From the NCBI GenBank assembly GCA_044358425.1, contig CP054849.1:1-16372 (forward strand): a stretch of 16,372 nucleotides of DNA. The letters run 5' to 3'. Positions 166 to 16,372 of the stretch are shown in pieces. Position numbers and translations under genes: made by a program. Below the pieces are notes generated by a model. It did not search any database. It worked only from the letters and a program-made list of their open reading frames with translations, and was not told where the DNA came from. Source of the stretch: Marine Group I thaumarchaeote (GTDB lineage: Archaea > Thermoproteota > Nitrososphaeria > Nitrososphaerales > Nitrosopumilaceae). Numbering within the stretch: the first letter of the stretch is position 1; each line of letters begins with the position of its first letter.

Positions 166-225
166 TTGATTTCACAAACAAAAATCAGATGATCTACTAA
201 ATACCAGGTATTCTTTAACCTGATA

Positions 226-1326: not shown

Positions 1327-1329
1327 TTC

Positions 1330-2688
1330 TTACCAAACATCGTCTACTTCATCAAGTTCTTTGTATTCTTTTTCAGTTTCACGTTTGATGTAATTCAGTC
1401 TTGAAACATCTCTATCAAAAAACAAATCTATTATCCAATCTAAAAATACGCGTGTTTTTTTGTCAAATGTTGGTACCTTTGACAAATACACATTTCTCCA
1501 AATTAGCCAAGCCAAAAATCCTGATATATTCATCCCAAGAATTGTTGCAATACCAGTTCTTTTACCAATTATTGCTAATTGACCTTTAGATTCATAAACA
1601 AATTTTTCTTTTTCAGAATTTTTAACTATGGCAATTAAATTTTTAGCAGCTAATTTTGCTTGGGCTTCTGCAATTTGTGCAGTTGGTGGTAATGGTCTGT
1701 TAGTAGTTGGGTCCACAAATAATGCACAATCCCCAATTGCAAAAACTCCTGGAAATTCTTTAAGCTCCAAAAATTTGTTGACTACAATTTTTCCTTTATC
1801 TGTTTTAAACATTGATCTTTTAATTGTACTAACTGAAGTAATTCCTGCAGTCCAAATTAGTGTTTTTGTAATTATAGAACTAACTTCAGATTGGTCTATG
1901 GAGTCTTTTGGTGTTTCATCTAACGATTTTATCATTACTTCATTTCCATCAAAACTAGTCACTGCTTTTTTTAATTGAATATCCATTCCTCTTTTTGTTA
2001 ATTGTTCTTTTGCAAAATTTGCTAATTTTTTATTTGCACCACCTAAAATTTCTCCCATTGCTTCTAATACAATCACTTTAACATCATCTTTCTTTATTGT
2101 CGGATAATGTTTTGTTGCATCAAAAAGTAAATCTAATAATTCTCCAGCAGTTTCAATTCCTGCATAACCTCCACCAACTACTACAAAATTTAACATACCT
2201 TTTCTTAAGATTGGATCAGTCTCATTTTCTGCTTGCTCAAGCATATCGATAACTCTATTTCGTAACATCACAGCATCGTTTAGTGTTTTCATTGTGTATG
2301 CATTTTTTTCAACATCAGCCATGCCAAAAAAATTAGTTTCACTACCAAGTGCTACCACTAAAAAATCATAATGAATTGAAATACTTCTTTTATCCCTAGT
2401 TCCCCATAATGTCACTAATTTTCCATGTGGATCAATATTCTTTATTCGTCCTTCATAGAATTTTGTTTTTTTACATATTGTTCGAATTGGAAAAACTATA
2501 TGCCTAGTTTCAATCATTCCTGAGGCTACTTGAGGTAACATTGGAGTGAATAATAGAAAATTATCTTCTCCTATCATTACTAACTCCATTTCAGGATCAT
2601 TACCAAATTCTTTTTCTAATTTTTTTGCACATTCTACTGCTGCAAATCCACTTCCTAAAATAACAATTTTCTTCTTATTTTTTACCAA
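1330..2688 (-). CDS. ndh: Type II NADH:quinone oxidoreductase (NDH-2) / FAD-dependent pyridine nucleotide-disulfide oxidoreductase
   Basis: Two Rossmann motifs (IVILGSGFAA; VVVGGGYAGIETAGE), FTPMLPQVASG, YDFLVVALGS, VFAIGD, PPTAQIAEAQ, and C-terminal amphipathic GFLAWLIWRNVYL. Confidence 0.88.
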   Translation of the reverse strand: MVKNKKKIVILGSGFAAVECAKKLEKEFGNDPEMELVMIGEDNFLLFTPMLPQVASGMIETRHIVFPIRTICKKTKFYEGRIKNIDPHGKLVTLWGTRDKRSISIHYDFLVVALGSETNFFGMADVEKNAYTMKTLNDAVMLRNRVIDMLEQAENETDPILRKGMLNFVVVGGGYAGIETAGELLDLLFDATKHYPTIKKDDVKVIVLEAMGEILGGANKKLANFAKEQLTKRGMDIQLKKAVTSFDGNEVMIKSLDETPKDSIDQSEVSSIITKTLIWTAGITSVSTIKRSMFKTDKGKIVVNKFLELKEFPGVFAIGDCALFVDPTTNRPLPPTAQIAEAQAKLAAKNLIAIVKNSEKEKFVYESKGQLAIIGKRTGIATILGMNISGFLAWLIWRNVYLSKVPTFDKKTRVFLDWIIDLFFDRDVSRLNYIKRETEKEYKELDEVDDVW

Positions 2689-2755
2689 TTACTGACTTTT
2701 GTATGCTGAATAATTAAAGGATGTTAATTGAAATTAAAGTAATGGCACTAGTATG

Positions 2756-3418
2756 TTATTTTCTCATAATATCTGAATGTAAAATATCATATGCTCTTGA
2801 TGAATCTCTTTCATTTAGAATTATTGTAATGTTATCTTGACTGAAAAATGCATTAACTAATTCTACACCATTTGCATGTAATACCTCTGCAACATAAGAT
2901 ACTACATCAGACTGATTCTGGGAACTTGGTATTGAAATTCTTATTTTTGCCAATCCAGTGCTAAACATATCTTCTCTTTCTGAAACACTATTGAAAATTT
3001 CTCTAATATCATCCATATCTTCAGTAAGGAATCTAAATGAATCAGATAATCTAAAAAATTCATAATCATTTGTTACTTTAGAGAATTTATCTAAAATTGA
3101 CATAGGATCCATTTCATTTGAATCCTTTACAGAAAATCTGACATCCATAATTCCATCAGTTAAAGCTAATCTTGCATTTTTCAAAACTGATTCTTCTTTC
3201 ATTTCTTCTTTAGTTTCAAATGAATCTGCATATCTTTTGATTGCAACAACAACTGTGTTCAGATTAACAGAATTTCCTAAAATTTTTTCTATTTCTGGTT
3301 GAATCTTAACTGCTAATGCAGTATAATTTATCAAATCCATTTTCATACAATCATAAATTGATCTATTTCTGGTAATGACTTCTCTAACAACTTCTGGAAC
3401 AGACATCACTGATCTCAT
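2756..3418 (-). CDS. ACT-domain protein with N-terminal helical/HTH-like domain; putative ligand-responsive regulator
   Basis: N-terminal LINYTALAVKI...VVVAIKRY helical segment; C-terminal ACT-like VVSYVAEVLHANGVELVNAFFSQDNITIILNE. Confidence 0.7.
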   Translation of the reverse strand: MRSVMSVPEVVREVITRNRSIYDCMKMDLINYTALAVKIQPEIEKILGNSVNLNTVVVAIKRYADSFETKEEMKEESVLKNARLALTDGIMDVRFSVKDSNEMDPMSILDKFSKVTNDYEFFRLSDSFRFLTEDMDDIREIFNSVSEREDMFSTGLAKIRISIPSSQNQSDVVSYVAEVLHANGVELVNAFFSQDNITIILNERDSSRAYDILHSDIMRK

Positions 3419-3483
3419 AAAATTTATTATATTATGTCAGATATAATAGGATTATGTAATAATATCAATATTAATTCGATATA

Positions 3484-3512
3484 TTTATATAATGTAATAC
3501 ATATTACATTAT
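3484..3512 (+). promoter_or_regulatory. TATA box (TTTATATA, 3484-3491) of hsp20-cdc48, overlapped by the perfect inverted repeat ATAATGTAATA-ca-TATTACATTAT (3489-3512); putative operator
   Basis: 11-bp arms are exact reverse complements with a 2-nt spacer; lies between the TATA box and the ATG at 3523. Confidence 0.6.
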
Positions 3513-3522
3513 GTAGATAAAT

Positions 3523-4017
3523 ATGACAAGTTTCTTTGATACCGAAATTGATAGAATCTTCAAAAAAATGTCTGAATCATTTTTTGATGCAAATGGCATG
3601 ATTGAAGAATTCAACGGTAATTCCAATTCTGGCCCGATTTTTTATGGTTATACAATGACCATTGGTCCAGATGGAAAACCTTCTGTGCAAGAATTTGGAA
3701 ACGCAAAACCAGATCGTCTCCCTGTTTCTAATGCCAGAGAAGCAATTGTTGATACAATTGTAGATGAAAAAGAGAAAGTAGTAAAACTCATAGCTGAAAT
3801 GCCAGGAGTTGAAAAAACTGATGTCAAAATTTTAGTTGACAAAAATGTTGTAAATATAACTGCAGAACGTGGTGATAAAAAATATCACTGTAAAGTTCCA
3901 CTTCAACATAAAGTTGATGAAAATTCTGCAAAAGCTACTTACAAAAATGGAATCTTGCAATTGGTTTTCAAACTAGTTGTAGAAAAACAAACTGGTAAAA
4001 AAGTGGAGGTTGAATAA
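3523..4017 (+). CDS. hsp20: Archaeal small heat shock protein Hsp20 (alpha-crystallin domain)
   Basis: GPIFYGYTMTIGPDGKPSVQEFGN (archaeal Hsp20 N-terminal motif), AEMPGVEKTDV, AKATYKNGIL, C-terminal VEVE (IxI-like). Confidence 0.93.
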   Translation: MTSFFDTEIDRIFKKMSESFFDANGMIEEFNGNSNSGPIFYGYTMTIGPDGKPSVQEFGNAKPDRLPVSNAREAIVDTIVDEKEKVVKLIAEMPGVEKTDVKILVDKNVVNITAERGDKKYHCKVPLQHKVDENSAKATYKNGILQLVFKLVVEKQTGKKVEVE

Positions 4018-4043
4018 CCCCCCTTCCTATTTTTTGAGGCTTT

Positions 4044-6161
4044 ATGATGAATAAAATAATTTTAAAAATAAATGAAATTCCACAACAACATGTTGGTAAA
4101 GGTCGAGCAATTATTGATCCAAAAATAATTGAAGAACAAAATTGGAATGTTGGTCAAATATTGGAATTAACTTACAATAAAAAAACATATGTTAAACTTT
4201 GGCCAGCATCACCAGAAGAATATGGTGCAAGTTTAATCAAAATTGATGGTATTACTAGACAAAATATTGGTGCAGGATTAGATGACAAAATATCTATTAA
4301 ATCTGTTGAAGCTGCAAATGCAGAACAAATTACCTTATCTCCAACAGAAAAAATTGCAATAGATGGATTACAAGAATATATGATATACAATTATCTTAAT
4401 CACGTATTTTCTAATGGGGATACAATATCTCTTAATACACAAATGGGAAGTAAAATTCAATTTGTTATAACAAATACAAAACCATCAAAACCTGTAATTG
4501 TTACTGAAAGTACTTTATTCAAACTTGGTTCATTAACTAAAGCTGTTGATTCTTCTGTACCAAGAATCACATATGATGAATTGGGAGGTCTAAAAAATGA
4601 AGTTCAAAAAATTCGTGAAATTGTAGAATTACCAATGCGTCATCCTGAATTATTTGATAAAATAGGCCTAGAAGCTCCAAAGGGTGTTTTACTTTATGGT
4701 CCACCAGGAACTGGTAAAACTTTGATTGCAAAAGCAGTGGCTGGAGAAACAAATGCTCATTTTATTTCTCTAAGTGGACCTGAAATTATGGGCAAACATT
4801 ATGGAGAAAGTGAAGAAAAAATTAGAGAAATCTTTACGCAAGCCGAAGAAAATTCTCCTAGTATCATTTTCATTGATGAAATAGACTCAATTGCTCCAAA
4901 AAGAGATGAAGTTTCAGGAGAATTAGAGAAAAGAATAGTATCTCAATTACTGACGTTAATGGATGGTATGAAATCTAGGGGTAAAGTTGTAGTGATAGCA
5001 GCTACTAACAGACCTGATTCTATTGATCCAGCATTAAGACGACCAGGAAGATTTGATAGAGAAATTGAAATTGGAATTCCTGATAATGATGGTAGACTGG
5101 ATATTCTTTCAATTCATACACGTGGAATGCCAATTAATGAAAAAGTCAATTTGAAACAAATCGCAAAAACCACTCATGGATTTGTTGGGGCTGATTTAGA
5201 AACTTTGTCAAAGGAAGCAGCAATGAGATCATTACGCAGGATTCTTCCTGAGATTGATCTTGAAGAAGAGAAAATTTCTTCAGAAATTCTTCAAAAAATT
5301 GAAATTAGTAATGATGATTTTCGAGAAGCACTAAAGGAAGTTAGACCTAGTGCACTAAGAGAAGTTCAGGTTCAAATTCCTGATGTAAATTGGGATGATG
5401 TTGGAGGTCTTGATGAGTTAAAGGATGAATTGCGTGAAGCTGTTGAATGGCCTATTAAACATAAGGAAGCATATGACTATGTTGATGTAGAAGCACCAAA
5501 AGGTATTTTATTACATGGTCCACCAGGAACTGGTAAAACTTTGATTGCAAAAGCACTTGCAAAAATGACCGAATCTAATTTCATTAGTATCAAAGGACCC
5601 GAATTATTATCAAAATGGGTAGGTGAGTCTGAGAAAGGAGTTAGAGAAATTTTTAGAAAAGCAAGACAAGCAGCACCATGTATAATATTTTTAGATGAAG
5701 TTGATGCACTTGTACCAAGAAGAGGTAGTGGAAGTTCTGATTCACATGTAACAGAAAATATTGTTTCACAAATTCTTACTGAAATAGATGGATTAGAAGA
5801 ATTACATAATGTGTTAATTATTGGAGCAACAAATCGATTGGATATTGTTGATGAAGCACTTTTACGACCTGGAAGATTTGACAGAATTATTGAAGTAGGA
5901 AATCCTGACTCTAAAGGAAGAACGCATATTTTTGAAATTCATACTAAAAAGAAACCACTTGAAAATAATGTGAATATTAAAAAATTAGTAGAAATGACGG
6001 ATGGATTTAGTGGTGCAGAAATAGCTGCAATTACCAATAGAGCGGCTTTAGTTGCATTGAAAAGATATGTTGCTGGTAAATCTCAAAATATTAAGGAAAT
6101 TAAAATTACACAACAAGATTTGATTGATGCTGTTGATAAGATAAGACCTCAAAAAAAGTAA
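4044..6161 (+). CDS. cdc48: CDC48/VCP-family AAA+ ATPase (N domain + D1 + D2)
   Basis: Two AAA modules: GPPGTGKT x2, Walker B IFIDEID / [17 protein letters not shown] / [22 protein letters not shown]; N-terminal double-psi-barrel-type domain. Confidence 0.96.
4696..5555 (+). repeat. 41-bp exact direct repeat inside cdc48 (4696-4736 and 5515-5555) encoding the D1 and D2 Walker A motifs
   Basis: ATGGTCCACCAGGAACTGGTAAAACTTTGATTGCAAAAGCA is identical in both copies. Confidence 0.95.
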
Positions 6162-6217
6162 GCACCTATACCTCAAGCGATAAAATAGTCTAAATACTGA
6201 GGATAATGTGTTAAAAT

Positions 6218-6436
6218 ATGAAACTTTTACTAGATTTTGAACCTTGTAAAGAATGCAAAGAAATGATGACTGAATTAAGCAGTCCTGAAATGATTTTTGC
6301 TGACGAAAAAATAAGAATAGATCAATCTGCTAAATTTCTTCGACATTTGACGTATAATCATAATGAGGTTTTGCAAGCTGTAATGGAAGATCTTCCAAAA
6401 CAGAAAAAGGATCAAGAACCTGATTTTTATCAATAA
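6218..6436 (+). CDS. Small hypothetical protein with CxxC...HxxxxH putative Zn ligands and C-terminal FYQ
   Basis: 72-aa ORF with ATG start; CKEC and HLTYNH motifs; fills the gap after cdc48. Confidence 0.7.
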   Translation: MKLLLDFEPCKECKEMMTELSSPEMIFADEKIRIDQSAKFLRHLTYNHNEVLQAVMEDLPKQKKDQEPDFYQ

Positions 6437-6501
6437 TTAATTTTTCCTTATTTTAGTAAAATCTACACCAAGAATTTCTTTCCTAATAATTTTTAAAATT
6501 T

Positions 6502-6693
6502 TTATTTTTTAATAGATTCTAAAGAATGTCCACGATTTGTAATCATTTGTGTAACTGCTTCTATAGTATAATCAAGCCCATGTTCTTCTTCAAAATGATC
6601 TCTTAATTTTTCAATCAAGCCCATAGTTAATTCTTCATCTAAAGCTAGATCACATTCATAACCATAATCACTACATCTTATTTTAATTGACAT
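6502..6693 (-). CDS. DUF1059-like small metal-binding protein
   Basis: CSDYGYEC...LRDHFEEEHG pattern (CxDxGxxC...HxxxxHG). Confidence 0.8.
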   Translation of the reverse strand: MSIKIRCSDYGYECDLALDEELTMGLIEKLRDHFEEEHGLDYTIEAVTQMITNRGHSLESIKK

Positions 6694-6780
6694 TACGTTT
6701 TTGAATTCTCAAAGCTATAAAAATGTCAGCATATTTTTTTGATAATACCACTAATAACCCCTAAAACTAATTTTAAATCA

Positions 6781-7161
6781 ATGAAAGGTTTGGAATTTAT
6801 TTTTCTTGGAATGGGTTCTGTTCTAGGTGCATTTCTAAGATACAAACTTACTGAATCACCATTAATTTTCAATACATTACCTGTTAACGTTTTGATAGTC
6901 AATATTGCTGGAGCATTTATTCTTGGAATATTTGTAGTAGTTTCACAACAATGGCATCTTGATTCAAAATATTCGTTATTTGCTGCTGTTGGTTTTTGTG
7001 GTTCATTGACTACAATGTCTGCATTTGCACTTGATTCTAGTAATCTACTTGAAAGTAACCAATACATTTCATTTATTGTTAATATTTTTACAAATGTTGG
7101 ATTATCTATTGCAGCCTTAATTGGAGGAAAATCCTTAATGAGTGCAATAATTAATAATTAA
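6781..7161 (+). CDS. crcB: Fluoride efflux channel Fluc/CrcB (start more likely ATG 6781 than 6739)
   Basis: GSVLGAFLRY, LIVNIAGAFILG, GFCGSLTTMSAF motifs; four TM segments; 126 aa. Confidence 0.92.
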   Translation: MKGLEFIFLGMGSVLGAFLRYKLTESPLIFNTLPVNVLIVNIAGAFILGIFVVVSQQWHLDSKYSLFAAVGFCGSLTTMSAFALDSSNLLESNQYISFIVNIFTNVGLSIAALIGGKSLMSAIINN

Positions 7162-7167
7162 TTGAAG

Positions 7168-7398
7168 ATGGTTTACTCATATCAGGTAGTTAAATTCCAA
7201 ACAATTTCATTTGTAAATGGAGTTCATTGGTCTCAATCTGTTAGTGATAAAGGGATTTTGTACAAATCTCTAAAAGATCCATTTTCAAAACTAATTGTAC
7301 AATCTCAAAATGGCTCAAAAAAATTATACCATATTCCAAAAGATCGAACAGTTGTTGTAAATAATGATACTGTACATTTTCTAGGTGAACCAGCTTAA
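7168..7398 (+). CDS. Small hypothetical beta-rich protein, likely co-transcribed with crcB (alternative TTG start at 7162)
   Basis: ORF abuts the crcB stop; protein-like composition. Confidence 0.7.
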   Translation: MVYSYQVVKFQTISFVNGVHWSQSVSDKGILYKSLKDPFSKLIVQSQNGSKKLYHIPKDRTVVVNNDTVHFLGEPA

Positions 7399-7461
7399 CC
7401 GGTAATGGTAATATTGATAAATATCAAATTGAATTTATATCACTAATTTTGTATTAGTATA

Positions 7462-7761
7462 TTGTTAGAATTAACCAAAAAAGTATTTGGAAATATCATG
7501 ACTCAAGAAATTATTGGTTCAGAACCATCTATTTCTGAAATAAAGATTAGATTTGAAAATGAATTTCAAATATTAATTAAAAATTTAGAATCAATTTCTA
7601 AACAAAATTTGGAAAATATATTGCAAAAGCAAAAAATTTCACAAAAACATGTGAATACTAGACCTGGAGCTATGGCTTTGAATCAAAGTAAAATTGAAAT
7701 GTTTAACGATTACAATAACAAATATCTTAACAAAATTAATGAAAAATTTACTACTTTTTAG
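7462..7761 (+). CDS. Hypothetical protein
   Basis: 99-aa ORF with TTG start; TTTATA at about 7434-7439 upstream; 3' end overlaps the convergent antiporter gene. Confidence 0.65.
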   Translation: MLELTKKVFGNIMTQEIIGSEPSISEIKIRFENEFQILIKNLESISKQNLENILQKQKISQKHVNTRPGAMALNQSKIEMFNDYNNKYLNKINEKFTTF

Positions 7762-9211
7762 AATCATCTGATGGTTTTATAAATCCGCCATCAAATTTTT
7801 CATGATACTCATCTACTTCTTCAGTAACAATTTCATTATCTGATGAATCATCTGATGGTTTTACAAATCCTCCTCGAATTGAATCTGGTGGTGGAATTTT
7901 TTTTGATTTTCCTAACCCTATTGTTGTAATTATTACAGAGGATAAAATTATGAAAAATATCATTTGTGGATATGCTTCTGCATTTGGTAATCCCATAGTT
8001 ATTGGATAAGTTGCAAGTACTGCAGCAGCTAACCCCCTTGGAATCATTGAATTTGTTACTGATTTATCTAATCTAGAAAATCTTTTTGTTAAAACAGCTT
8101 TTACAACACCTGCTCTGCCAACAAATACTGCAATTGTTATCACAATTCCAAATATCATGTATTCAATTTGTCCAAATGTTGCCATCAACCCAACAAATAC
8201 AAAGAAAAATGATCTTACCAAAAATGTCAGTTGATTATGGGTTGGATCATCCATCTCGATTCTAGGAACCTTGAATCTAAGAATTCTGGAAAGATGTCTT
8301 TTGTTACCAATCATTAAACCAAATACTAAGGCTGTTAGTGCTCCTGATTCTCCAAATGAATTTGCTAAGAAAAATAGTACAAATAATATTGATAATGTCA
8401 ACATATACGCGTGTTGTGCATTTCCAAATTTTGTTGAAATATACATCCAAGGTATTCCTACACCAAATCCTAAAACTAAACCAACAACAACTGCTCTGCC
8501 AATTGTTTCTTGTAATGTTTGTAAATCAAAATGACCAGCAAGAACAGCTTCAAATAAAATGAATGCAATAATTGTGGCAAGAATATCTGTCACTGCTGAC
8601 TCAAAGCTCAGAATTGATTTTGTTTCTTCTGATATTCTGATATTTCTAACTAAACCAAAAACGATTGCTGAACTACTACCTCCAACAATTGAAGCTAGCA
8701 AAATACTTTCTAGCCAAGTCCATTCTAGAACGTAATGTGTTGCAACTGAAATTATTATTACAGATAGGATAAAACCCACAATAGCTAAAGTAACTGAATA
8801 ATGCGCAGTTTTTATTACATGTTTGATATCTAAATTTAATCCACCATCAAACATGATAATTATCAATGCAAGTGCTGCAAAATATGGGACGACTTGAATA
8901 ACAGCTTCAGCTTGAATAATTCCAAATACTGGTCCTATAATTACACCTAGAATCATTAAAAATGCTACATCTGGAATACCTGTTTTTTTAAAAAATGCTT
9001 CTCCTGCAACTCCAAGAAATATTACAACACCTGCTGCAAGTAATATTATTGGTGCAGTAGCAATTGGCTCATCCTGTATTGATAATGAAGAAATTGATGT
9101 TTGTATTTCTGTTAGTTTATTCAAAATAACTGATGAATTAATTTCTGAAAATGAAAAACCTTCAATTTGTGATGTTATCAAATTTAATATTGTTAAAGTA
9201 ATTGTATCCAT
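7751..9211 (-). CDS. Cation:proton antiporter (CPA1/NhaP-like Na+ or K+/H+ exchanger); start probably ATG 9211, ORF extends to 9262
   Basis: About 12-13 TM segments; KKTGIPDV, IIMFDGGL, SFESAVTD, ESGALTALVFGL, FFFVFVGL, IPRGLAAAVLA motifs of NhaP-type antiporters. Confidence 0.9.
   Translation of the reverse strand: MDTITLTILNLITSQIEGFSFSEINSSVILNKLTEIQTSISSLSIQDEPIATAPIILLAAGVVIFLGVAGEAFFKKTGIPDVAFLMILGVIIGPVFGIIQAEAVIQVVPYFAALALIIIMFDGGLNLDIKHVIKTAHYSVTLAIVGFILSVIIISVATHYVLEWTWLESILLASIVGGSSSAIVFGLVRNIRISEETKSILSFESAVTDILATIIAFILFEAVLAGHFDLQTLQETIGRAVVVGLVLGFGVGIPWMYISTKFGNAQHAYMLTLSILFVLFFLANSFGESGALTALVFGLMIGNKRHLSRILRFKVPRIEMDDPTHNQLTFLVRSFFFVFVGLMATFGQIEYMIFGIVITIAVFVGRAGVVKAVLTKRFSRLDKSVTNSMIPRGLAAAVLATYPITMGLPNAEAYPQMIFFIILSSVIITTIGLGKSKKIPPPDSIRGGFVKPSDDSSDNEIVTEEVDEYHEKFDGGFIKPSDDSKK
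7761..7873 (-). repeat. Imperfect 29-bp direct repeat (7761-7789, 7845-7873) encoding a duplicated GGF[VI]KPSDDS motif in the antiporter C-terminal tail
   Basis: gaatcatctgatggtttta(t/c)aaatcc(g/t)cc, 27/29 identical, 84-bp period. Confidence 0.85.
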
Positions 9212-9317
9212 TACTAATTGATTGAAATTATATATGGTTAAAAAGTAAACTGAATTTTTCATGAGTGTTTTGATAGTTTGTAAAACATTAAATCCAATAC
9301 AAGAATAATTTTTGTTA

Positions 9318-9860
9318 TTGAGTGCAACTAATTCATTACGTGAAGATCATAAACAAATTAGGCGTTTAGATAAAATAATCATAAAATGTTATACAGAACT
9401 TTATGCAGGTAAAAATATTCCAATTTCAGATTTAGAAAAAATTACAATTATTATTGAGGAATTCTTTGATTCAATTCATTATTCTCGAGAAGAGGACTCA
9501 TATTTTCCATGCGTTGCAAGTTATGATCATTTAAAACAAGAAATTCGAGCATTGTTAATTGAACATGAGTTTTCAAGAAGAATTGCAATTCAAATAAAAA
9601 AGCATGTAAAACGATGGAAAAATGGTGAAGATGCACGGGAACCTGTTGCAAGATTTTTGAAAACATACTCTACTTATCTAATGGATCACATGAAAAAGGA
9701 AGAAAATTTCTTTGATAAAGCCGAAGCTGAAATAATATCTAAAGAGGAGGAGTTTGAAATGTATGAACAATTCAAATCTGTAATGACAGTTTCAAAAAAA
9801 ATGGAAGATATGATCAAAGAGATTGATTATTTAGAAAAACAAAATTGGGTTCAAAATTAA
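9318..9860 (+). CDS. Hemerythrin/HHE cation-binding domain protein (TTG start at 9318 or 9312)
   Basis: LREDHKQI, HYSREEDSYFP, LLIEH, DHMKKEENFF metal-ligand motifs. Confidence 0.88.
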   Translation: MSATNSLREDHKQIRRLDKIIIKCYTELYAGKNIPISDLEKITIIIEEFFDSIHYSREEDSYFPCVASYDHLKQEIRALLIEHEFSRRIAIQIKKHVKRWKNGEDAREPVARFLKTYSTYLMDHMKKEENFFDKAEAEIISKEEEFEMYEQFKSVMTVSKKMEDMIKEIDYLEKQNWVQN

Positions 9861-9897
9861 CGTAAGCTCTTTATTAGTAATTTCAACATTTTTGAAT

Positions 9898-10413
9898 ATG
9901 AAACCTTTCATTCTTTGGATGACTGGTCTTCCTTGTTCAGGCAAGACCACAATTGTAAAAGATTTGCAGAAAGATATTCCAAATTTGGCAATGCTTGATG
10001 GTGATGAACTAAGAGAATGGTTCTCGCCAAAAGATTTCTCAAAAGCAGGACGTGATGAACATAACAAAAAAGTTGCTCATTTAGCTAAGCTTTTGCTAAA
10101 TCATGGTGTTCCAAGTGTAGTATCTCTAGTTTCACCATATGTTGAAAATAGAGAAAATGCTAGAGAAATTATTTCTGCAGGTGATCAATTTGCAGAAGTG
10201 TATGTAAAGTGTTCATTAGCAAAATGTGAAGAAAGAGATGTCAAAGGCATGTATGCCAAGGCTCGAAAAGGAGAGATTAAAGGATTTACAGGAATAGATG
10301 ATCCTTATGAGGCTCCAGAAAAAGCAGATTTAGTTATTGATACCGAACATGAACCTCTTGCAGATAGTGCAAATAAAGTAAAGGACTTTCTTAATGAAAG
10401 AAACCTACTCTAA
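9898..10413 (+). CDS. cysC: Adenylyl-sulfate (APS) kinase
   Basis: WMTGLPCSGKTT P-loop, LDGDELR, SLVSPY, RDVKGMYAKARKGEIKGFTGIDDPYEAP. Confidence 0.96.
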   Translation: MKPFILWMTGLPCSGKTTIVKDLQKDIPNLAMLDGDELREWFSPKDFSKAGRDEHNKKVAHLAKLLLNHGVPSVVSLVSPYVENRENAREIISAGDQFAEVYVKCSLAKCEERDVKGMYAKARKGEIKGFTGIDDPYEAPEKADLVIDTEHEPLADSANKVKDFLNERNLL

Positions 10414-11220
10414 TTTTTTAAATTCTGTTAAAATTTTTTCATGAATTAATCCATTGGTTACTAAGATGCCATTTTGATGATACACATTTTTGTTATTATA
10501 TGTTAATTCGTTTCCTAACATATCTGTCATTTTTCCACCAGCTTCTGAAATAATACAATGAGATGCAGCTGTATCCCATTCTTTCATTTTATTTGTTGTA
10601 GTAATGTATATTTCGGCTTGACCTGAACTAATTTTACCAACTTTTAATGAACTTCCTATACTTGTGAAATCTTTAATTCCTATTTTTTCAATGAAATCTT
10701 TTTCTTTATCTGATAAATGATGTCTAGAACCTATTGTTCTACATTTAGGAAGTTCAGAAATTTTAGTAACTGATATTTTCTCCCACTTATTATCTGAATA
10801 TCTAAAAGCACCAGCATTTTTTTGTGCAACGAATAAGGTTTTTTCAGTTGGCCATGCAATTACACCTAAAATTGGTTTTTGATTTTGTACTAATGCAATC
10901 ATTACTGTAAATTCTCCAGTTTTATCAATAAAATCAGAAGTTCCATCAAGCGGATCAATTATCCAAATTATATCATTTGACAATCTAGTTTTATCATCAA
11001 CATCTTCTTCAGAAAGAATTGAATGTTTTGTGACTGAGAGAATTTCTTTAATTATTTTATTACTTTGTAAATCTGCATCTGTTACTGGGGAATTGTCAGT
11101 TTTAGTGAACGTTTTGAAACCTTTTTCGTAAATTTTTAAAATTTTATTTCCTGCTTCTTGTGCAGCCTTAATTGCAAGATCTAACTCTGGAATTTTATTT
11201 GAAATTGGAATATTGTTCAA
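10405..11220 (-). CDS. cysQ: 3'(2'),5'-bisphosphate nucleotidase (PAP phosphatase), inositol monophosphatase family
   Basis: KTDNSPVTDAD, ILSEE, WIIDPLDGT, GEFTVMIAL, GSSLK, EWDTAASH, EAGG. Confidence 0.93.
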   Translation of the reverse strand: MNNIPISNKIPELDLAIKAAQEAGNKILKIYEKGFKTFTKTDNSPVTDADLQSNKIIKEILSVTKHSILSEEDVDDKTRLSNDIIWIIDPLDGTSDFIDKTGEFTVMIALVQNQKPILGVIAWPTEKTLFVAQKNAGAFRYSDNKWEKISVTKISELPKCRTIGSRHHLSDKEKDFIEKIGIKDFTSIGSSLKVGKISSGQAEIYITTTNKMKEWDTAASHCIISEAGGKMTDMLGNELTYNNKNVYHQNGILVTNGLIHEKILTEFKKLE

Positions 11221-11233
11221 TTATGGTTTTTCC

Positions 11234-11443
11234 TTATGTTGTTAATTCTGGTTTCAAAGACCATGCAATTCCTAGCATGATAAATGGAATTGACATGACC
11301 CCAATTATTCCTAAAACTGTATTAAATTGAGCGTCAGAAACTGCAGGATTGTTAATTATCCATGGTAGTGGTAATGTAATTACTATCCAAATTGCTCCTA
11401 AGAGAATTATTAGTTTAGCTCTAAATTTTTTCTTACTTTCCAT
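11234..11443 (-). CDS. Small membrane protein with two TM helices
   Basis: 69 aa; basic N-terminus; two hydrophobic stretches. Confidence 0.75.
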   Translation of the reverse strand: MESKKKFRAKLIILLGAIWIVITLPLPWIINNPAVSDAQFNTVLGIIGVMSIPFIMLGIAWSLKPELTT

Positions 11444-11483
11444 ATCATTTCGTAATTTTGGGTTGTATTAAATTCATGTGAAT

Positions 11484-12227
11484 TTATTTAATTGATTCTC
11501 CTCCATCAACTGTTAGTATTGCTCCAGTAACCCATGATGCATCATCTGATGTAAAATACAATGCAGCTTTTCCAATTTCTTCAGGTTGACCAATTCTTCC
11601 TAATGGATGTTCATTATTCATAAATTCTATATCCTTTTGATTTTTTAAAAATGGTTTTGTCATATCTGTGTCAACTACTCCTGGACAAATACAATTAACT
11701 CTAATTTTGTCTTTAGCATATTCTAATGCCCAACATTTTGTGAGTACAATTAAAGCAGCTTTTGAAGCTGAATATGCATCTGCATTAAACCCTTGATATG
11801 CTTTTAATCCTGCATCAGATGAGATGTTAATGATACAACCAGATGTTTTTTGTAAATATGGTATTGCCTCTTTAGTAAATCTAAACTGTCCAGTTAAATT
11901 AACGTCTAATACTTCATTCCATTCTTCCTCATCAATTTCATGTAATTGTTTTATTTTTGGAAATATACCTGCGTTATTTACTAAAATATCCAGCTTACCA
12001 AATTTTTCAATTGTTTTATTTAATACATTTTGAACTTCACTCTTTTTTTTAATATCACATGTTATTCCAAATGAATTTGTAATTTGTGCTTCAGCTTTTC
12101 TTATTTTTTCAGAGTCTTTTGATGTAATTACTACTAATGCCCCATTTTCTGATAGAATTTTTGCAATGGCAAATCCAATTCCTCTACTTCCACCAGTGAC
12201 TAAAGCAATTTTACCTGTTAATTTCAT
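11484..12227 (-). CDS. Short-chain dehydrogenase/reductase (classical SDR, FabG-like)
   Basis: TGGSRGIG, LDILVNNAG, catalytic YSASK, IRVNCICPG, VDGG. Confidence 0.95.
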   Translation of the reverse strand: MKLTGKIALVTGGSRGIGFAIAKILSENGALVVITSKDSEKIRKAEAQITNSFGITCDIKKKSEVQNVLNKTIEKFGKLDILVNNAGIFPKIKQLHEIDEEEWNEVLDVNLTGQFRFTKEAIPYLQKTSGCIINISSDAGLKAYQGFNADAYSASKAALIVLTKCWALEYAKDKIRVNCICPGVVDTDMTKPFLKNQKDIEFMNNEHPLGRIGQPEEIGKAALYFTSDDASWVTGAILTVDGGESIK

Positions 12228-12392
12228 CAGTTTTAAAATTCAATTTCGTAATTTATAGATCAATTTAATGAAAAATCATTAAAATAATTTAATAATATTC
12301 ACTATTTTCAGTAATTATTATTAAAAAATCTTAAATATTGATTTTTTCTATAATACTTAATGTCGAAAGTTGTTATTTCTATCGACTAATTT

Positions 12393-12485
12393 GCGTAGCC
12401 CCGCAGAACGAAAAAGGCACTCAGGCGTTTGACGCTTGACCACAAGAGGAAATCTCTTATTGTTCTGCAGTTATGGGGTTTACGC
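12393..12485 (+). ncRNA. Putative structured non-coding RNA (three-way junction), family not recognised
   Basis: GC-rich island in an AT-rich intergenic region. Nested pairings: GCGTA/TACGC, GCCCC/GGGGT, GCAGAAC/GTTCTGC, hairpin TCAGGCGT/ACGCTTGA, hairpin AAGAG/CTCTT. G-U wobbles favour the + strand; a T-rich tract follows. Confidence 0.65.
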
Positions 12486-12488
12486 CTT

Positions 12489-12926
12489 TTACTTTATCAA
12501 ATCCACTGATACTGAACCCTTCACGTTCCCATTTGGATTAATAGTAATTGAAATTTCTTGTGATGAATCAATTATAATTTTTTCATTTCCATTATATTCC
12601 CATGTGAAATATTTTGCAGTTTCAGATTCATGTGGAATGCCTACTAGTTCAAAATTTTCTTCAAATGTATAATTTTGACCATTTAATTTTATTGATAAAA
12701 TTTCAGGACTGCTACCATTTGGAACAAATCTAAAAAAATATGTTCCTGGATCAATCAAAAATTCATCAGTATAAACTCCATTAGTATAAAGTTCAGGGTC
12801 TGCTAAAGTTATGTGAAATATATCGTCATTGATTTTCTCATTCTCATCTGATAATCCTGTAATCCAATCAAATACAACAAATCCCAGTATAGGAATAATT
12901 ACCAGAATCACTATTTTTTTATTCAT
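12489..12926 (-). CDS. Hypothetical membrane-anchored/secreted beta-rich protein (ATG 12926; ORF extends to 12938)
   Basis: MNKK followed by a hydrophobic N-terminal anchor; acidic extracellular domain. Confidence 0.8.
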   Translation of the reverse strand: MNKKIVILVIIPILGFVVFDWITGLSDENEKINDDIFHITLADPELYTNGVYTDEFLIDPGTYFFRFVPNGSSPEILSIKLNGQNYTFEENFELVGIPHESETAKYFTWEYNGNEKIIIDSSQEISITINPNGNVKGSVSVDLIK

Positions 12927-13041
12927 AACACAAATCACAAATTCTATTATAAAAAATATTTTTTATTCAGCTCACTAAATTTCACGTCCTGTTAAGCTAA
13001 TTTTACACTTGAAATTAAGTAATAACTCCAGAATCTAATTT

Positions 13042-13683
13042 ATGACTGGTCTTAATGATAAGTGGTCCAAACAACCAAAAACAGGCATAGCTGATAAAAT
13101 CAATGATACAATCAAGCCTAAAGGTCCATTAAAACCACGAGTTCAAGATGGTATTAAAAAATTACAATCACAAATCAAAAAATTAGATTCTATGTTATCC
13201 AGTCTAAAAGAACGTGATGCTAAATTATTTCAAAGAATCGTTACTGCAACACAAAATCATGATGTACAAACTAGTAAAGTTTTAGGAAATGAATTAGCTG
13301 AGGTTCGTAAAGTTACAAAAATTTTAAGCAGTGCTAGAATTGCTTTAGAGCAAATTGAATTAAGATTATCTACATGTAATGATCTTGGTGATACAGTAGT
13401 TGCTATGATACCTACAATGGGATTAATGAAGAATCTAAAATCATCACTTGGAAAAGTAATGCCTGGTGCAGAACAAGAAATTGGTCAAATGGCAGAAATG
13501 CTTGGAGGATTTATGACTGAAAGTTTCGCAGGTGATGCAGCATTTGGTATCGATGAAACAACTAATGCAGAATCTGAGAAAATTTTACAAGAGGCTTCTG
13601 CTGTTGCTGAAAGTTCAACTGGTGAAATGTTCCCATCTGTTCCATCTGCTAGTAAAGAACAAACAAGCTCTAAATTTTTCTAA
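13042..13683 (+). CDS. cdvB: ESCRT-III / CdvB-family (Snf7 domain) protein, stand-alone paralog
   Basis: Snf7 core (PLKPRV...LKERDAKLFQRIV...NELAEVRKV...ALEQIELRLST..DLGD), ESEKILQEASAVAE helix, C-terminal FPSVP (MIM2-like) motif. Confidence 0.88.
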   Translation: MTGLNDKWSKQPKTGIADKINDTIKPKGPLKPRVQDGIKKLQSQIKKLDSMLSSLKERDAKLFQRIVTATQNHDVQTSKVLGNELAEVRKVTKILSSARIALEQIELRLSTCNDLGDTVVAMIPTMGLMKNLKSSLGKVMPGAEQEIGQMAEMLGGFMTESFAGDAAFGIDETTNAESEKILQEASAVAESSTGEMFPSVPSASKEQTSSKFF

Positions 13684-14153
13684 TTTTCTACAGAATCTCT
13701 GCTTTCTTTAATTTGTTTAACTCTATTTCCTTCATCTCCTACTATAGTGTCAATACCTGAAAGCTTATCTCTCAAATTATTGATTATTGTAGCTACTTCA
13801 TCTGCTTCATTTTCTACCTTCATTCTTTTATCTGCTAGTTGCTGAATTCCTCTATTTTCTTCATCAATGTATTCACTAACTTTTTGTAATTTTTCTTTAA
13901 GATTTTTGATATCTACTGATTCTTCTTCTATATCTTTTTCAAGCATTGTTCTTTTATCTTTAAGATTTTTTATCATTAAACCCACATAATCAATTGCTTC
14001 TTCTAATTTTGCGCGTTTTCCCATTAATTCTCCAATACCTATAGTTGATTCGCTATTTACTGATGATTCTACTGATTCTTCTACGTTAGTATTCTCTTCA
14101 ATCCTTTCTTCCATCATTTCTCCTCCTTTCTCTTCTTTGAACTTATCAAACAT
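13680..14153 (-). CDS. Acidic coiled-coil protein of unknown function
   Basis: Long heptad-patterned stretch (RAKLEEAIDYVGLMIKNLKDKRTMLEKDIEE...); stop overlaps the convergent cdvB stop. Confidence 0.8.
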   Translation of the reverse strand: MFDKFKEEKGGEMMEERIEENTNVEESVESSVNSESTIGIGELMGKRAKLEEAIDYVGLMIKNLKDKRTMLEKDIEEESVDIKNLKEKLQKVSEYIDEENRGIQQLADKRMKVENEADEVATIINNLRDKLSGIDTIVGDEGNRVKQIKESRDSVEN

Positions 14154-14313
14154 TTTATGATTTTCTATTGAAATTGGGAATAAAAAGTTATTATGAATCT
14201 CAAAGCTGACCTTGTGAATGAATTTTGATCCAATTTTTTAGCCTCATTTTGATACAAATTTTGAGAAAATTCTCATTTTTAGCAAAATTAGGGGATTTTT
14301 TTCAGTGAAACGG

Positions 14314-14340
14314 GCGTTCCGCTTTGCGTTCCGCTATAAA
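14314..14340 (+). promoter_or_regulatory. Tandem direct repeat GCGTTCCGCT x2 (14314-14323, 14326-14335) fused to the TATA box TATAAA (14335-14340)
   Basis: Exact 10-bp GC-rich repeats with 12-bp period in AT-rich intergenic DNA; 44 nt upstream of the wHTH ATG. Confidence 0.65.
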
Positions 14341-14384
14341 GTTTCAAAATGTTCCTCATTAACAACACCATTCTATACTAATGC

Positions 14385-14672
14385 ATGTCAAAACAACAGT
14401 ATAGGTCCGAAATGGGCATAATGGGTGATATCTTAGACGTTACTGCTAATGGCGGTCGCGATGGAATCATTGTATCTGCAATCTCTCGAAAAGCCAACCT
14501 ATCTCACTATGCAGTATTAGACAAATGTGAGAAATTGGTAGAAGCTGGCTTAGTAGAATCAGTCAAAAATGATAGAAATAGAGTCTTTCAAATAACTGAA
14601 AAAGGTCTAGGCTTTTTCCAGGAATTCAAAAGATTCCAAAATCTAGTAGAAAGCATGAATCTAAGGTATTGA
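14385..14672 (+). CDS. Winged helix-turn-helix transcriptional regulator (archaeal HTH_45/COG3432-like)
   Basis: YRSEMGIMGDIL...AISRKANLSH...LVEAGLV...FQITEKG pattern. Confidence 0.88.
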   Translation: MSKQQYRSEMGIMGDILDVTANGGRDGIIVSAISRKANLSHYAVLDKCEKLVEAGLVESVKNDRNRVFQITEKGLGFFQEFKRFQNLVESMNLRY

Positions 14673-14768
14673 TCTCCATTGAGCCTATTAATCGAACCAA
14701 TTCAATCGAAAAAATCTCTAGGAGACGAGGGAATACTTTTTGTAAGGAATGACAGTATCTTTGATACA

Positions 14769-15701
14769 ATGGTCAAAGTACCCCTTTTGGTAGCTAGTAT
14801 GATAATTGTAGCTGCTTTATTGCCAATCCAATCTTCCTTTAGTTCTCCTAGAGATCTTGATCTAATTATTTATCCAGATGGCTCTACTCATGTTTCAACA
14901 GAAATTGACGTTGATCCATTTCTAACTGATTATGAAGTAAATCTTTTTGGAAATACCATTGATAATTTAGTTGTAATAGGAGATAGTGGATTTCTCTTAG
15001 ACGTTGATGTTATAGGTGATACAGCTTTAATCCAAACTTTTGGTTCATCTGTAATAACTATTGAATATGATATTCATGATTTAGTTTCTAAACAAGGTAG
15101 ATTATGGACATTCTCTTTAGATTCTCCTTCTGACTTTACATTATTACTACCAAAAAATTCTGCTATAGTTGGTATGACAAATTTACCATTGAATATGGAA
15201 ATAATAAATGAACAAAATCAATTAACATTATCTTCAGGTTCAACTGAAATAGATTATTTTTTTAGCACAAGTACAATTTCAAACACTACTGAAGAAATAG
15301 TAAATGAAGAAGATACTTCATCAAACATAATTATTGTTGGAATAATTAGTGGAATTATTGTAATTGTATTAGTTTCTGTTATTATAGTTGCTAAAAATAA
15401 ACAAAAAAATGTTAAAACAATTGATGAAGTTGTAACCATTCAAAAAAATAATATTTTAGATCTTGAAAAAATTTTTAAATTAAAACCTGATTTAAGAGAG
15501 GATGACAAAGAATTAGTGAAATTTATTTTCGATAATAATGGTGAAGCACTTGAAAGTGAATTACGAAAAAAATTCTTACAGCCTAGAACCACAATGTGGC
15601 GTGCAGTTAAGCGATTAGAACGTGAGGGTGTAATTGAAATAGAAAAGAAAGATTTACAAAATTTGGTAAAATTACGCAAGAATATGGAGGAAGATAATTG
15701 A
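14769..15701 (+). CDS. Membrane-anchored protein: signal peptide, extracellular beta domain, TM helix, cytoplasmic winged-HTH (COG2512-like); start probably ATG 14769
   Basis: MVKVPLLVASMIIVAALL signal; TM IIIVGIISGIIVIVLVSVIIVA; C-terminal LREDDKELV...ESELRKKFLQPRTTMWRAVKRLEREGVIEIEK wHTH. Confidence 0.85.
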   Translation: MVKVPLLVASMIIVAALLPIQSSFSSPRDLDLIIYPDGSTHVSTEIDVDPFLTDYEVNLFGNTIDNLVVIGDSGFLLDVDVIGDTALIQTFGSSVITIEYDIHDLVSKQGRLWTFSLDSPSDFTLLLPKNSAIVGMTNLPLNMEIINEQNQLTLSSGSTEIDYFFSTSTISNTTEEIVNEEDTSSNIIIVGIISGIIVIVLVSVIIVAKNKQKNVKTIDEVVTIQKNNILDLEKIFKLKPDLREDDKELVKFIFDNNGEALESELRKKFLQPRTTMWRAVKRLEREGVIEIEKKDLQNLVKLRKNMEEDN

Positions 15702-16372
15702 AAAAATTAGCATTATTTGCAATAATTGTTTTGATTTTTGGTACAATGTCTCCATCATTAGTTAATCATGCATATGGACAAAATGATCCAAGTATTCTTT
15801 TACGTATTGCTGTACAAGCAGAAAAACAAATTATAAATCAATTAGATAAAAAATATGAAAATCAAATACCAAATAATATCAATATTTTATATGATAAAGG
15901 ACATAGAGCAGTTAAATCATTAGATCAATCATTGTCAAATAATGATATTGAAAAAGCTAAACAAGACTTTCTTTTAGCAATGAATTCATTTATGCAAATT
16001 TCTAGAATTATGTCACAATCCTCAGAAAAAGTTGTAGTAACGATTTCAGAAAATTCTAATCAAAATTTACAATCTAAAATAGATAGAATAGAAAAATATG
16101 TAAAAACTTTAGAATCAATTTCTCAAAAAAATAATAAAATTGATCAAAAAAAAGACCAATTTAATAAAGATTATTCATTAATTAAAGAAATACGTTACCA
16201 AATCAATTCTAATGAAAATCCGTATGACAATATCAATGAATTAAATAATTTGATGAATTCTATTAAAAAGGAAATACGTAATTCTATAGCTGAAAAGCAA
16301 TCTAATTCTATCAAAAACTTTTTTGAGAAATTCCTTGCTCAAATTGATCAAAAATTAATGGAAGCAAAGGAT
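15698..16372 (+). CDS. Secreted alpha-helical hypothetical protein, truncated at the right edge (absent from the ORF track)
   Basis: TTG start overlaps the upstream TGA (TTGA); GGAGG at 15686-15690; MKKLALFAIIVLIFGTMSPSLVNHAYGQ signal peptide; frame open for 225 codons to the window end. Confidence 0.85.
   Translation, partial: MKKLALFAIIVLIFGTMSPSLVNHAYGQNDPSILLRIAVQAEKQIINQLDKKYENQIPNNINILYDKGHRAVKSLDQSLSNNDIEKAKQDFLLAMNSFMQISRIMSQSSEKVVVTISENSNQNLQSKIDRIEKYVKTLESISQKNNKIDQKKDQFNKDYSLIKEIRYQINSNENPYDNINELNNLMNSIKKEIRNSIAEKQSNSIKNFFEKFLAQIDQKLMEAKD

Follow-up and report, generated by a model that had tools for sequence, protein, structure and literature searches.

We describe a small RNA gene, predicted to be about 130 nt long, in the genome of a Marine Group I thaumarchaeote of the family Nitrosopumilaceae. 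The DNA analysed was a stretch of 16,372 nt (GenBank assembly GCA_044358425.1, contig CP054849.1, positions 1 to 16,372 of the forward strand), referred to below as the window. The RNA element occupies positions 12360-12490 of the + strand, in the spacer between a short-chain dehydrogenase/reductase (SDR) gene and a 149-aa open reading frame (ORF). The element is conserved across the whole family with compensatory base changes, far beyond what chance would give, and is almost certainly a real RNA gene on the + strand. It appears to represent a new RNA family with a promoter of its own.

The element was found to stand out in both base composition and fold. G+C content was 50.5% over positions 12393-12485, as compared with 12.8% over the intergenic positions 12228-12360 and 29.9% over the whole window. 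An initial annotation of this DNA, made from the sequence alone, had pointed to such an island of about 50% GC in an AT-rich spacer and had read it as a nearly completely folded RNA. The minimum free energy (MFE) fold of positions 12355-12495 (+) was -44.4 kcal/mol (z = -4.1), none of 200 shuffled sequences was as stable, and the fold reproduced the complete architecture listed in that annotation. From 5' to 3', this architecture consists of a hairpin (P0), a linker, a helix (P1), a bulge on the 3' side, a second helix (P2) and a three-way junction bearing the hairpins P3 and P4 (Table 1). P1 is made of two segments, 12393-12397/12481-12485 followed by 12398-12402/12475-12479. All the helices, the bulge AGUUAU, the junction strand, the hairpin at 12362-12386, a TATAAT and the TTTT at 12487-12490 lie where the annotation had placed them, and the three G-U pairs that it had noted on the + strand are G12398-U12479, G12410-U12461 and G12424-U12436. 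The minus strand folded slightly more weakly (-40.1 kcal/mol, z = -3.9).

Conservation and covariation across Nitrosopumilaceae

The annotation had proposed a search for conservation and covariation in related genomes, and both were found. BLASTN detected the element in all 24 genomes of the window's genus, with two hits in many of them, and gave no hit in 16 genomes from other families. Since BLASTN alone failed outside the genus, covariance models were needed. A model built from 27 sequences of the window's genus (R1) matched over its full length in 133 of the 151 family genomes examined, representing 25 of 27 genera, with one to four matches per genome; when three unpublished genomes (G117, G132 and G133) are left aside, the count is 130 of 148. 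A model built from 41 diverse members (R2) matched 23 of 23 family genomes, genus g29 included, and none of 127 genomes in 19 other families of the order. In a phylum-wide sample, R2 matched 19 of 19 family genomes and none of 131 genomes in the rest of the phylum. Genus g21, with genomes of 0.8-0.9 Mb that are 79-95% complete, yielded no match with R1 (0 of 4) or R2 (0 of 3), and the RNA is to be regarded there as not found rather than absent. Within the genomes searched, the RNA family is restricted to Nitrosopumilaceae.

We also searched for the exact P4-P2 motif. Among the 80 loci listed, it was found in records of Nitrosopumilus, Nitrosarchaeum, Nitrosopumilaceae and Marine Group I. It was also present in two records named 'Nitrososphaeraceae archaeon' and in one short scaffold named 'Candidatus Bathyarchaeota archaeon' (L149, L193 and L152). 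These three names are doubtful because the models matched 0 of 127 and 0 of 131 genomes outside the family, and they are probably submitter labels or binning errors. The exact pattern had no match in viral contigs.

The predicted helices were supported by base changes on both sides. Among 99 aligned matches, 96.4% of cells form pairs, and 22 of the 28 pairs of the model show changes on both sides. None of 500 shuffles reached any of five covariation measures, and the covariation score was 0.266, as compared with 0.034-0.067 for slid partners. All five pairs of P0 (helix 1) were changed on both sides, with 90% of cells paired, and six of the seven pairs of P2 (helix 4) had double changes, with 97.6% of cells paired. 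In a plain MAFFT alignment made within the genus and without a model, compensatory changes were found in P0, P1, P3 and P4 (5 of 28 pairs). The Watson-Crick column pairs with the highest mutual information were the predicted helices, together with extra pairs in P1 (columns 56-188) and P3. When mutual information over all columns was examined for pseudoknot or tertiary pairs, it showed the known helices only, and nothing convincing for the P4 loop. In genus g29, P2 has been wholly swapped for other base pairs and P4 is retained.

We analyzed the information content of each element in 96 unique sequences (Table 1). The sequence of the helices is conserved beyond what pairing needs, whereas that of the junctions is not. 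P4 has a nearly invariant stem (GAGAG/CUCUC) and a loop with the consensus G-N-A-R-U, which reads GAAAU in 54 sequences, GGAAU in 19, GUAAU in 11, GUAGU in 2 and otherwise in 6 (12 of 104 were unmatched). In the window's genome, the P4 motif is confined to the two copies of the RNA described below. The length and loop of P3 differ from genus to genus. Conservation that is higher in helices than in junctions is the opposite of what is seen in riboswitch aptamers, ligand pockets and ribozyme cores. The unpaired parts being the least conserved, there is no single-stranded seed common to the family.

Table 1 Features of the RNA element and its surroundings in the window, with information content in 96 unique sequences and promoter counts in 91 sequences anchored on the ATG.
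Feature	Positions	Strand	Information (bits)	Basis or remark
BRE-like AAAT	12326-12329	+		positions -34 to -31: A82 A78 A80 T81 of 91
TATA box TTAAATA	12331-12337	+		positions -29 to -23: T81 T89 A86 A89 A90 T84 A84 of 91
Proximal TATA (12349-12352, within TATAAT)	12349-12354	+		positions -11 to -8: T81 A85 T72 A77 of 91
Nine-codon frame MSKVVISID	12360-12389	+	ATG 1.82; stop codon 1.58	ATG 12360-12362, stop TAA 12387-12389
P0, 5' hairpin GUCGAAAG / CUAUCGAC	12362-12386	+		MFE fold and covariation (helix 1)
Linker between P0 and P1	3-6 nt	+	0.44	alignment
P1, 5' strand GCGUAGCCCC	12393-12402	+	P1: 1.34-1.46	pairs with 12475-12485; MFE fold, covariation helices 2 and 3
P2, 5' strand GCAGAACG	12403-12410	+	P2: 1.45-1.49	pairs with 12461-12468
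J2/3, A-rich junction strand AAAAAGGCAC	12411-12420	+	0.98	kept within the genus, weak across the family
P3, variable hairpin	12421-12439 (12421-12428/12432-12439)	+	0.81	helix 5: 4 of 4 pairs with double changes
J3/4			0.70	
P4, 5-bp hairpin, pentaloop GAAAU	12444-12458 (12444-12448/12454-12458)	+	1.62-1.70	most conserved structural element
J4/2			0.77	
P2, 3' strand UGUUCUGC	12461-12468	+	P2: 1.45-1.49	MFE fold, covariation
Asymmetric bulge AGUUAU between P2 and P1	12469-12474	+	0.76	length and sequence variable
P1, 3' strand GGGGUUUACGC	12475-12485	+	P1: 1.34-1.46	MFE fold, covariation
3' tail, C + UUUU(AC...)	12486-12495	+		U-tract; overlaps the stop codon of the convergent gene
SDR gene	11484-12227	-		adh_short_C2, E = 2.1e-71; upstream, divergent from the RNA
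Convergent gene, 149-aa ORF, family-specific protein of about 145 aa	12489-12938	-		probable start ATG 12926

The window's genome (G000) carries a second copy of the RNA, unmentioned in the annotation, on the minus strand (C1:740616-740755, L002). Upstream of position 740727 this copy reads N, and the promoter and P0 of the second copy were read from the near-identical genome G010 (L027). The 75-nt body (window positions 12393-12467) is 100% identical between the two copies of the window's genome, and the same is true of the two copies in G010 (L003 and L027); orthologues differ by 7-25% over the same stretch. Complete identity within a genome points to gene conversion between unlinked paralogues and to a shared function, and fits dosage copies of one function. 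Copies with an identical body still differ in the P0 hairpin and in the 3' strand of P1. In one genus, tandem copies were observed about 180 nt apart on one strand (G174:C1:1604374-1604498 and 1604675-1604801, L083; also G152:C184:10091-10215 and 10397-10523).

A third, divergent paralogue, denoted type C, was also observed (L131-L135 and L137; for example, G043:C1:933614-933742 and G078:C1:1529101-1529229). Type C retains the promoter, the ATG frame and P1. P2 is missing, a different hairpin of 10 bp stands in the place of P4, and a conserved stretch of about 19 nt is unpaired. Type C may be a functionally distinct sibling of the RNA in the window.

Promoter, strand and transcript ends

Upstream of the ATG, the alignment revealed a conserved AAAT resembling a TFB recognition element (BRE) and a TATA box, TTAAATA, with much lower conservation in the columns beside them. 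Both elements are present in all paralogue types. The TATAAT that the initial annotation had taken as the promoter is too near the start of the RNA to be its TATA box and gives way in this role to TTAAATA, although the TATA within it is also conserved and is possibly a promoter-proximal element. A T at position -2 was found in 81 of 91 sequences, and a purine at position -1 also in 81 of 91. The spacing between TATA box and transcription start in archaea is usually about 25 nt. BRE and TATA box precede the predicted 5' end by about this distance, as in a free-standing archaeal RNA gene. The geometry of the promoter, together with the conservation at -2 and -1, suggests that transcription starts at about 12359-12360.

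U-tracts terminate archaeal transcription. The U-tract that the annotation had placed after P1 recurs in the family: a run of at least four T starting no more than 15 nt past P1 was found in 73 of 92 sequences, and no such run within 40 nt in 14 of 92. For this count, 13 of 105 sequences were left out since the pattern for the end of P1 was unmatched. The 12 nt following P1 are 59% T.

Strand could be judged from the base pairs themselves. The aligned pairs included 137 G-U or U-G cells and 27 A-C or C-A cells, and the excess of G-U over A-C therefore assigns the RNA to the + strand. Together with the RNA's own BRE and TATA box (81-90 of 91 in the TATA box columns), this is in agreement with the free-standing small RNA on the + strand that the annotation had proposed.

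The surroundings of the RNA copies are consistent with this. For 34 of 41 RNA matches, the first ORF downstream is encoded on the other strand, and extra copies adjoin unrelated genes (purP-like, TFB, CorA, SOD, PAPS reductase, a tRNA-binding protein and others), which together argue for a free-standing gene. On promoter, fold and context, the RNA in the window is predicted to be its own transcription unit of about 130 nt.

The body of the RNA was covered by contigs from four RNA-library runs, belonging to four studies; these contigs do not show strand or ends. Gaps in the contigs, such as those upstream of 12367 in X1, X5 and X6, were considered as transcript ends and rejected, contig data being unsuited to this use. 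The summed depth in X1, which was 35-98 over 12387-12471 and 6-24 over the neighbouring gene, was likewise rejected as an expression level, because contigs of related organisms are summed and a conserved RNA recruits more of them. The exact transcript ends and a high expression are what we infer from the features described above.

Comparison with known RNA families

We compared the element with known RNA families. None of the 4227 models of Rfam 15 matched anywhere in the window at gathering thresholds. Over positions 12200-12600, a search at E values up to 10 gave only three rows, with E values of at least 1.2 and scores of 10-17 bits, compared with thresholds of 50-77. In 20 diverse members (63 kb), no family fell on the element at E values up to 10. 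The row for TtnuCD11 (12.8 bits, an unstructured model) was rejected as a chance match. ARAGORN detected no tRNA or tmRNA genes in the window. The genome has its 5S rRNA (RF00001, 78 bits) at G000:C1:1108270-1108389, its signal recognition particle (SRP) RNA (RF01857) at 80429-80740 and its RNase P RNA (RF00373) at 871863-872142, with one copy of each above the cut-off and none at this locus. The annotation had noted that the RNA fits none of the consensus patterns of known RNA classes, and the Rfam comparison bears this out.

Motif searches gave a similar picture. Among 104 sequences, RUGAUGA was found in none at any position and CUGA in none within the last 20 nt, as box C/D would have required. 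The 5' end (UGAUG...UGA) was also considered as a K-turn or box C/D, and this was rejected, as the G-A pairs occur in few sequences and the boxes in 0 of 104. For box H/ACA, an ACA in the last 12 nt was found in 2 of 104, and the fold is a three-way junction with no pocket hairpin; no formal K-turn search was made. The hammerhead core CUGANGA was found in 3 of 104, and no ribozyme model matched. A closing helix of 5' AAUG and 3' CAUU was rejected since it is not conserved in the window's genus. No description of the RNA was found in the literature searched, including passages retrieved by term from PMC5069720, PMC3840354, PMC13475601, PMC12379486, bioRxiv 10.64898/2026.10.21.760802 and PMC2864571, a search that did not cover the supplementary tables of transcription start sites of PMC5069720. 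Absence from Rfam 15 and from the literature searched marks the RNA as a new family.

Several well-known RNAs share some features with the element. The Hgc RNAs of Methanocaldococcus and Pyrococcus are orphan GC-rich RNAs that came from base-composition screens and are present in Rfam as HgcC, HgcE, HgcF and HgcG. Like the RNA described here, they are stable small RNAs that form GC-rich islands in an AT-rich genome, have their own TATA promoter and sometimes have paralogues; the GC-island reasoning of the initial annotation follows the same logic as that screen. However, there is no relation in sequence or structure. The sole Hgc row, for HgcG, lies outside the element (12544-12600) and scores 10 bits compared with a threshold of 77, and no Hgc model matched in the 20 members. 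HgcE, HgcF and HgcG are H/ACA guides, and the present family, unlike them, is without an ACA box.

The RNA resembles 5S rRNA in size (about 120 nt) and in having its two ends paired as a terminal helix at the base of a three-way junction from which two arms extend; unlike 5S rRNA, it has an extra 5' hairpin and short arms that lack the 5S internal loops. With Y RNAs it shares paired ends, a U-tract, and paralogues with a divergent interior but a kept stem (types A and B as compared with type C). Y RNAs nevertheless belong to another domain of life and show no sequence similarity or Rfam match here, and no Ro-like or other partner is known in these organisms, TROVE-domain proteins not having been searched for. 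Bacterial sibling small RNAs (sRNAs) also occur as one to four near-identical unlinked copies, homogenised within a genome, each with its own promoter and terminator. They act through conserved single-stranded seeds, however, whereas conservation in the present RNA is lowest in the unpaired parts. Leader-peptide attenuators and dual-function sRNAs resemble it in having a tiny ORF before a strong helix and a U-tract, with the frame kept and the peptide not. The ORF considered here differs in being leaderless, at the extreme 5' end, and in having no sense gene downstream. We know of no dependence of archaeal termination on attenuator-type hairpins.

Mode of action and the reading frame at the 5' end

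We tentatively favour a trans-acting RNA with a structure- or protein-mediated mechanism. Conservation of helices over junctions, combined with the lack of a sense gene downstream, makes a riboswitch or ribozyme less plausible and favours an RNA that acts in trans and is probably bound by protein. In the proposed mechanism, transcription would start about 25 nt past the BRE and TATA box, at the ATG at 12360 or 1 nt before it, and would end at the U-tract after P1. The RNA folds into P0 and a long terminal helix of P1 and P2, parted by the flexible bulge. This helix closes the three-way junction, with P3 as a spacer hairpin that is free to vary and P4 (GAGAG-GNARU-CUCUC) as a near-invariant one. 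The folded particle would then act in trans. P1, P2, P4 and the P4 loop would be the surfaces recognised by one or more proteins or engaged in a tertiary or kissing contact, and a scaffolding role would fall to P0, P3, the bulge and the junction strands. The RNA would thereby work like other abundant small RNAs with a terminal stem and a U tail. The conservation pattern fits recognition of a folded particle by protein or by tertiary contact, and it is from this pattern that we infer a protein-binding mode of action.

Several observations weigh against this proposal. No co-varying or co-localised gene for an RNA-binding protein was found that could encode a partner, and the sole conserved neighbour encodes a membrane-anchored protein of extracellular type. 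Type C has lost the P2 and P4 sequences and keeps P1, the promoter and the 9-codon frame, which means that P4 is not the sole functional surface. The transcript data consist of RNA-library contigs alone, in which DNA carry-over is possible. The alignment used to count pairs was fitted to the model's own structure, and the sample is weighted to a few genera, so that the bit values overstate conservation across the family. In addition, the high conservation of the ATG (1.82 bits) and the stop codon (1.58) beside that of the linker (0.44) has no explanation in this proposal other than an initiator motif plus chance.

We therefore examined this frame, which the annotation does not mention, across the 96 unique sequences. 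An ATG was present in 92, and an in-frame GTG took its place in three more (L006, L008 and L085). All 92 frames that begin with ATG reach an in-frame stop after 8-10 codons. Those of nine codons (87) end in TAA (61), TAG (18) or TGA (8). Three length variants (L083, L086 and L100) differ by exactly 3 nt. Five of six type C members examined are without the P0 hairpin yet keep the 9-codon frame, ending in TAA or TGA. No peptide is conserved (MSKVVISID, MSLVIKSGD, MPKDIIPID, MQKRANSNT and others), and the entropy by codon position (0.83/1.00/0.88) showed no codon periodicity. Neither ATG nor stop is present in genus g29 (L099 and L128), and a +2 insertion in L135 (type C) shortens the frame to five codons. 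For archaeal stable-RNA genes, an initiator motif consisting of an ATG at the gene start has been described; among three other stable-RNA genes of the window's genome, a small comparison, one (RNase P) starts with ATG. The frame may be a translated leaderless mini-ORF, or an initiator that coincides with the hairpin P0.

A role coupled to translation is unlikely in our estimate, but it is the alternative with the most to be said for it. The RNA would be a leaderless mini-mRNA with a 5' AUG and a 9-codon frame, the peptide itself being unimportant. A ribosome terminating 3-6 nt before P1 could melt the 5' strand of P1, and the folding, stability or termination of the RNA would then depend on whether a ribosome occupies it. 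Another possibility is that the RNA titrates ribosomes that initiate on leaderless messages. This would account for an ATG and a stop that are nearly always present, with all three stop codons in use, and that rank near the top in conservation, next to a linker that ranks lowest. The TATA centre 26 nt before the A of the ATG, the T at -2 and the purine at -1 also match leaderless geometry, and the steps of exactly 3 nt among length variants and the frames kept in type C after the loss of P0 point the same way. However, neither three-base periodicity nor a conserved peptide is seen, and the substitutions track P0 pairing. Because frame length is set by hairpin length, conservation of the frame is in part a by-product of the hairpin. 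Where DNA is AT-rich, chance gives an in-frame stop within 10 codons about half the time, and since about one UGG would be expected at the stop position, finding none there carries no significance. Initiation should also be hampered by P0, whose first pair contains the G of the ATG. The losses in genus g29 and the shortened frame of L135 also speak against such a role, and the ATG can be read as the initiator motif of stable RNAs mentioned above.

The two ideas can be combined, although we consider the combination improbable. The RNA would then be a molecule of dual nature, in which a leaderless 9-codon mini-message is fused to a three-way-junction domain, either protein-free or protein-bound, and a ribosome terminating 3-6 nt before P1 would switch the fold open or closed. 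If this were true, an abundant small RNA would read out the cell's capacity for leaderless translation. Through it, feedback might be exerted on termination, on the availability of ribosomes or on antisense read-through into the gene next door, and such a device would be peculiar to Nitrosopumilaceae, marine and terrestrial.

Regulation by base pairing is, in our view, also improbable. An sRNA of this kind would act in trans on mRNAs via J2/3 in types A and B, or via the 19-nt single strand in type C. Many regulatory sRNAs are, like this RNA, free-standing and multi-copy with a U-rich 3' tail; J2/3 (GAAAAAGGCA) is kept within the genus, and type C offers its conserved unpaired stretch. Across the family, however, the unpaired segments are the least conserved and provide no seed, and it is the helices that are conserved instead.

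The convergent gene raises the question of action in cis. The annotation had described the RNA as lying between the SDR gene and a convergent membrane-protein gene. The 149-aa ORF is indeed convergent, and the SDR gene, also on the minus strand, is divergent from the RNA. The stop codon of the convergent gene (12489-12491) falls within the U-tract of the RNA. The encoded protein has no Pfam match. It consists of an N-terminal membrane helix and a beta-sandwich (jelly-roll-like; AlphaFold pLDDT 84.5) that has no PDB match at E <= 0.001 and gives no clue to the RNA. Among the residues invariant in the protein are Y, G, W and P, within the motifs FHVTLADP, FRFVPNGDSP, YYTW and INPNGN. Relatives of the protein are encoded in the loci L014, L044, L064, L067-L069, L073, L074, L083, L085, L087 and L088.

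An antisense partnership would mean that convergent transcription or an RNA-mRNA duplex tunes this gene, with extra RNA copies hitting the same 3' untranslated region in trans; we hold this to be quite improbable. The two genes are closely tied in position and occurrence. Their tail-to-tail spacing is at most 10 nt in 19 of the 23 family genomes holding both, the window's genome included, and within 140 nt in two more. A profile of the protein matched 22 of 23 family genomes, in all 23 of which the RNA was found, and both were found in none of 127 genomes from other families of the order. The RNA's U-tract is made of the gene's last codons and stop, and the minus strand has no T-run right after the stop, so the mRNA must enter the RNA gene. 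Nevertheless, a shared distribution is expected of any two family-specific genes, and gene order is conserved on both sides in any case, the upstream SDR gene being syntenic in several genera. Extra copies of the RNA lie beside unrelated genes, and simple antisense action would need neither the selection for G-U pairs nor a defined fold of the + strand. G050, a genome that is 99% complete, carries three copies of the RNA and no detectable gene for this protein, and the distance between the two is 96 kb in G041 and 11 kb in G046. These three genomes indicate that the RNA is independent of the convergent gene.

A riboswitch-like sensor or a self-cleaving ribozyme built on the three-way junction is very improbable. 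Such RNAs commonly contain a compact three-way junction, an A-rich strand and a GNRA-like loop, as this one does. Against this, 34 of 41 matches have no sense gene downstream, and the neighbours are functionally unrelated. The junction strands are poorly conserved across genera (0.70-0.98 bits), no Rfam riboswitch or ribozyme model matched the 20 members at E values up to 10, CUGANGA is rare (3 of 104), and P2 is fully replaced by other pairs in genus g29. Finally, that the element is no + strand RNA at all, being instead a minus-strand 3' untranslated region or terminator of the convergent gene or a conserved DNA-level element, is hardly credible: although it directly follows the stop of that gene and its minus strand folds well (-40.1 kcal/mol, z = -3.9), this is contradicted by the G-U excess (137 vs 27), a + strand BRE and TATA box at a fixed distance, copies away from the gene and in a genome without it, and a model score of 27 bits on the reverse strand compared with 105 on the forward strand.

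Three further observations concern the surroundings of the RNA. Read on the minus strand, the A-run of J2/3 (12411-12417) gives a stretch of five T about 75 nt past the stop of the convergent gene, and could serve as the terminator of that gene in the window's genus; it is not conserved in other genera. A block upstream of the SDR gene (GTAATTTATAGATC, + strand, about 12250-12270) is conserved in syntenic loci and is probably the SDR gene's own minus-strand TATA box, implying a very short 5' leader. A 213-aa ORF at 13042-13683 (+) has a weak match to Snf7 (ESCRT-III/CdvB-like; E = 4.9e-5), whose 23.5 bits fall below the Pfam cut-off of 27.3.

The Nitrosopumilaceae, which rank with Earth's most abundant archaea, perform much of marine ammonia oxidation, and to our knowledge almost nothing has been reported about their non-coding RNAs. 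The RNA described here is near-universal in the family, its copies are homogenised in genomes of about 1.2-2 Mb, its promoter is close to consensus and its structure is under selection, which together make an important lineage-specific role very likely. For annotators, it provides a new family model of 138 positions with at least 28 base pairs and about 100 aligned members, and experimental work on cultured strains such as Nitrosopumilus and Nitrosarchaeum gains a defined target. If the 5' frame is read by ribosomes, the RNA would also be a natural test case for leaderless initiation versus RNA structure in archaea.

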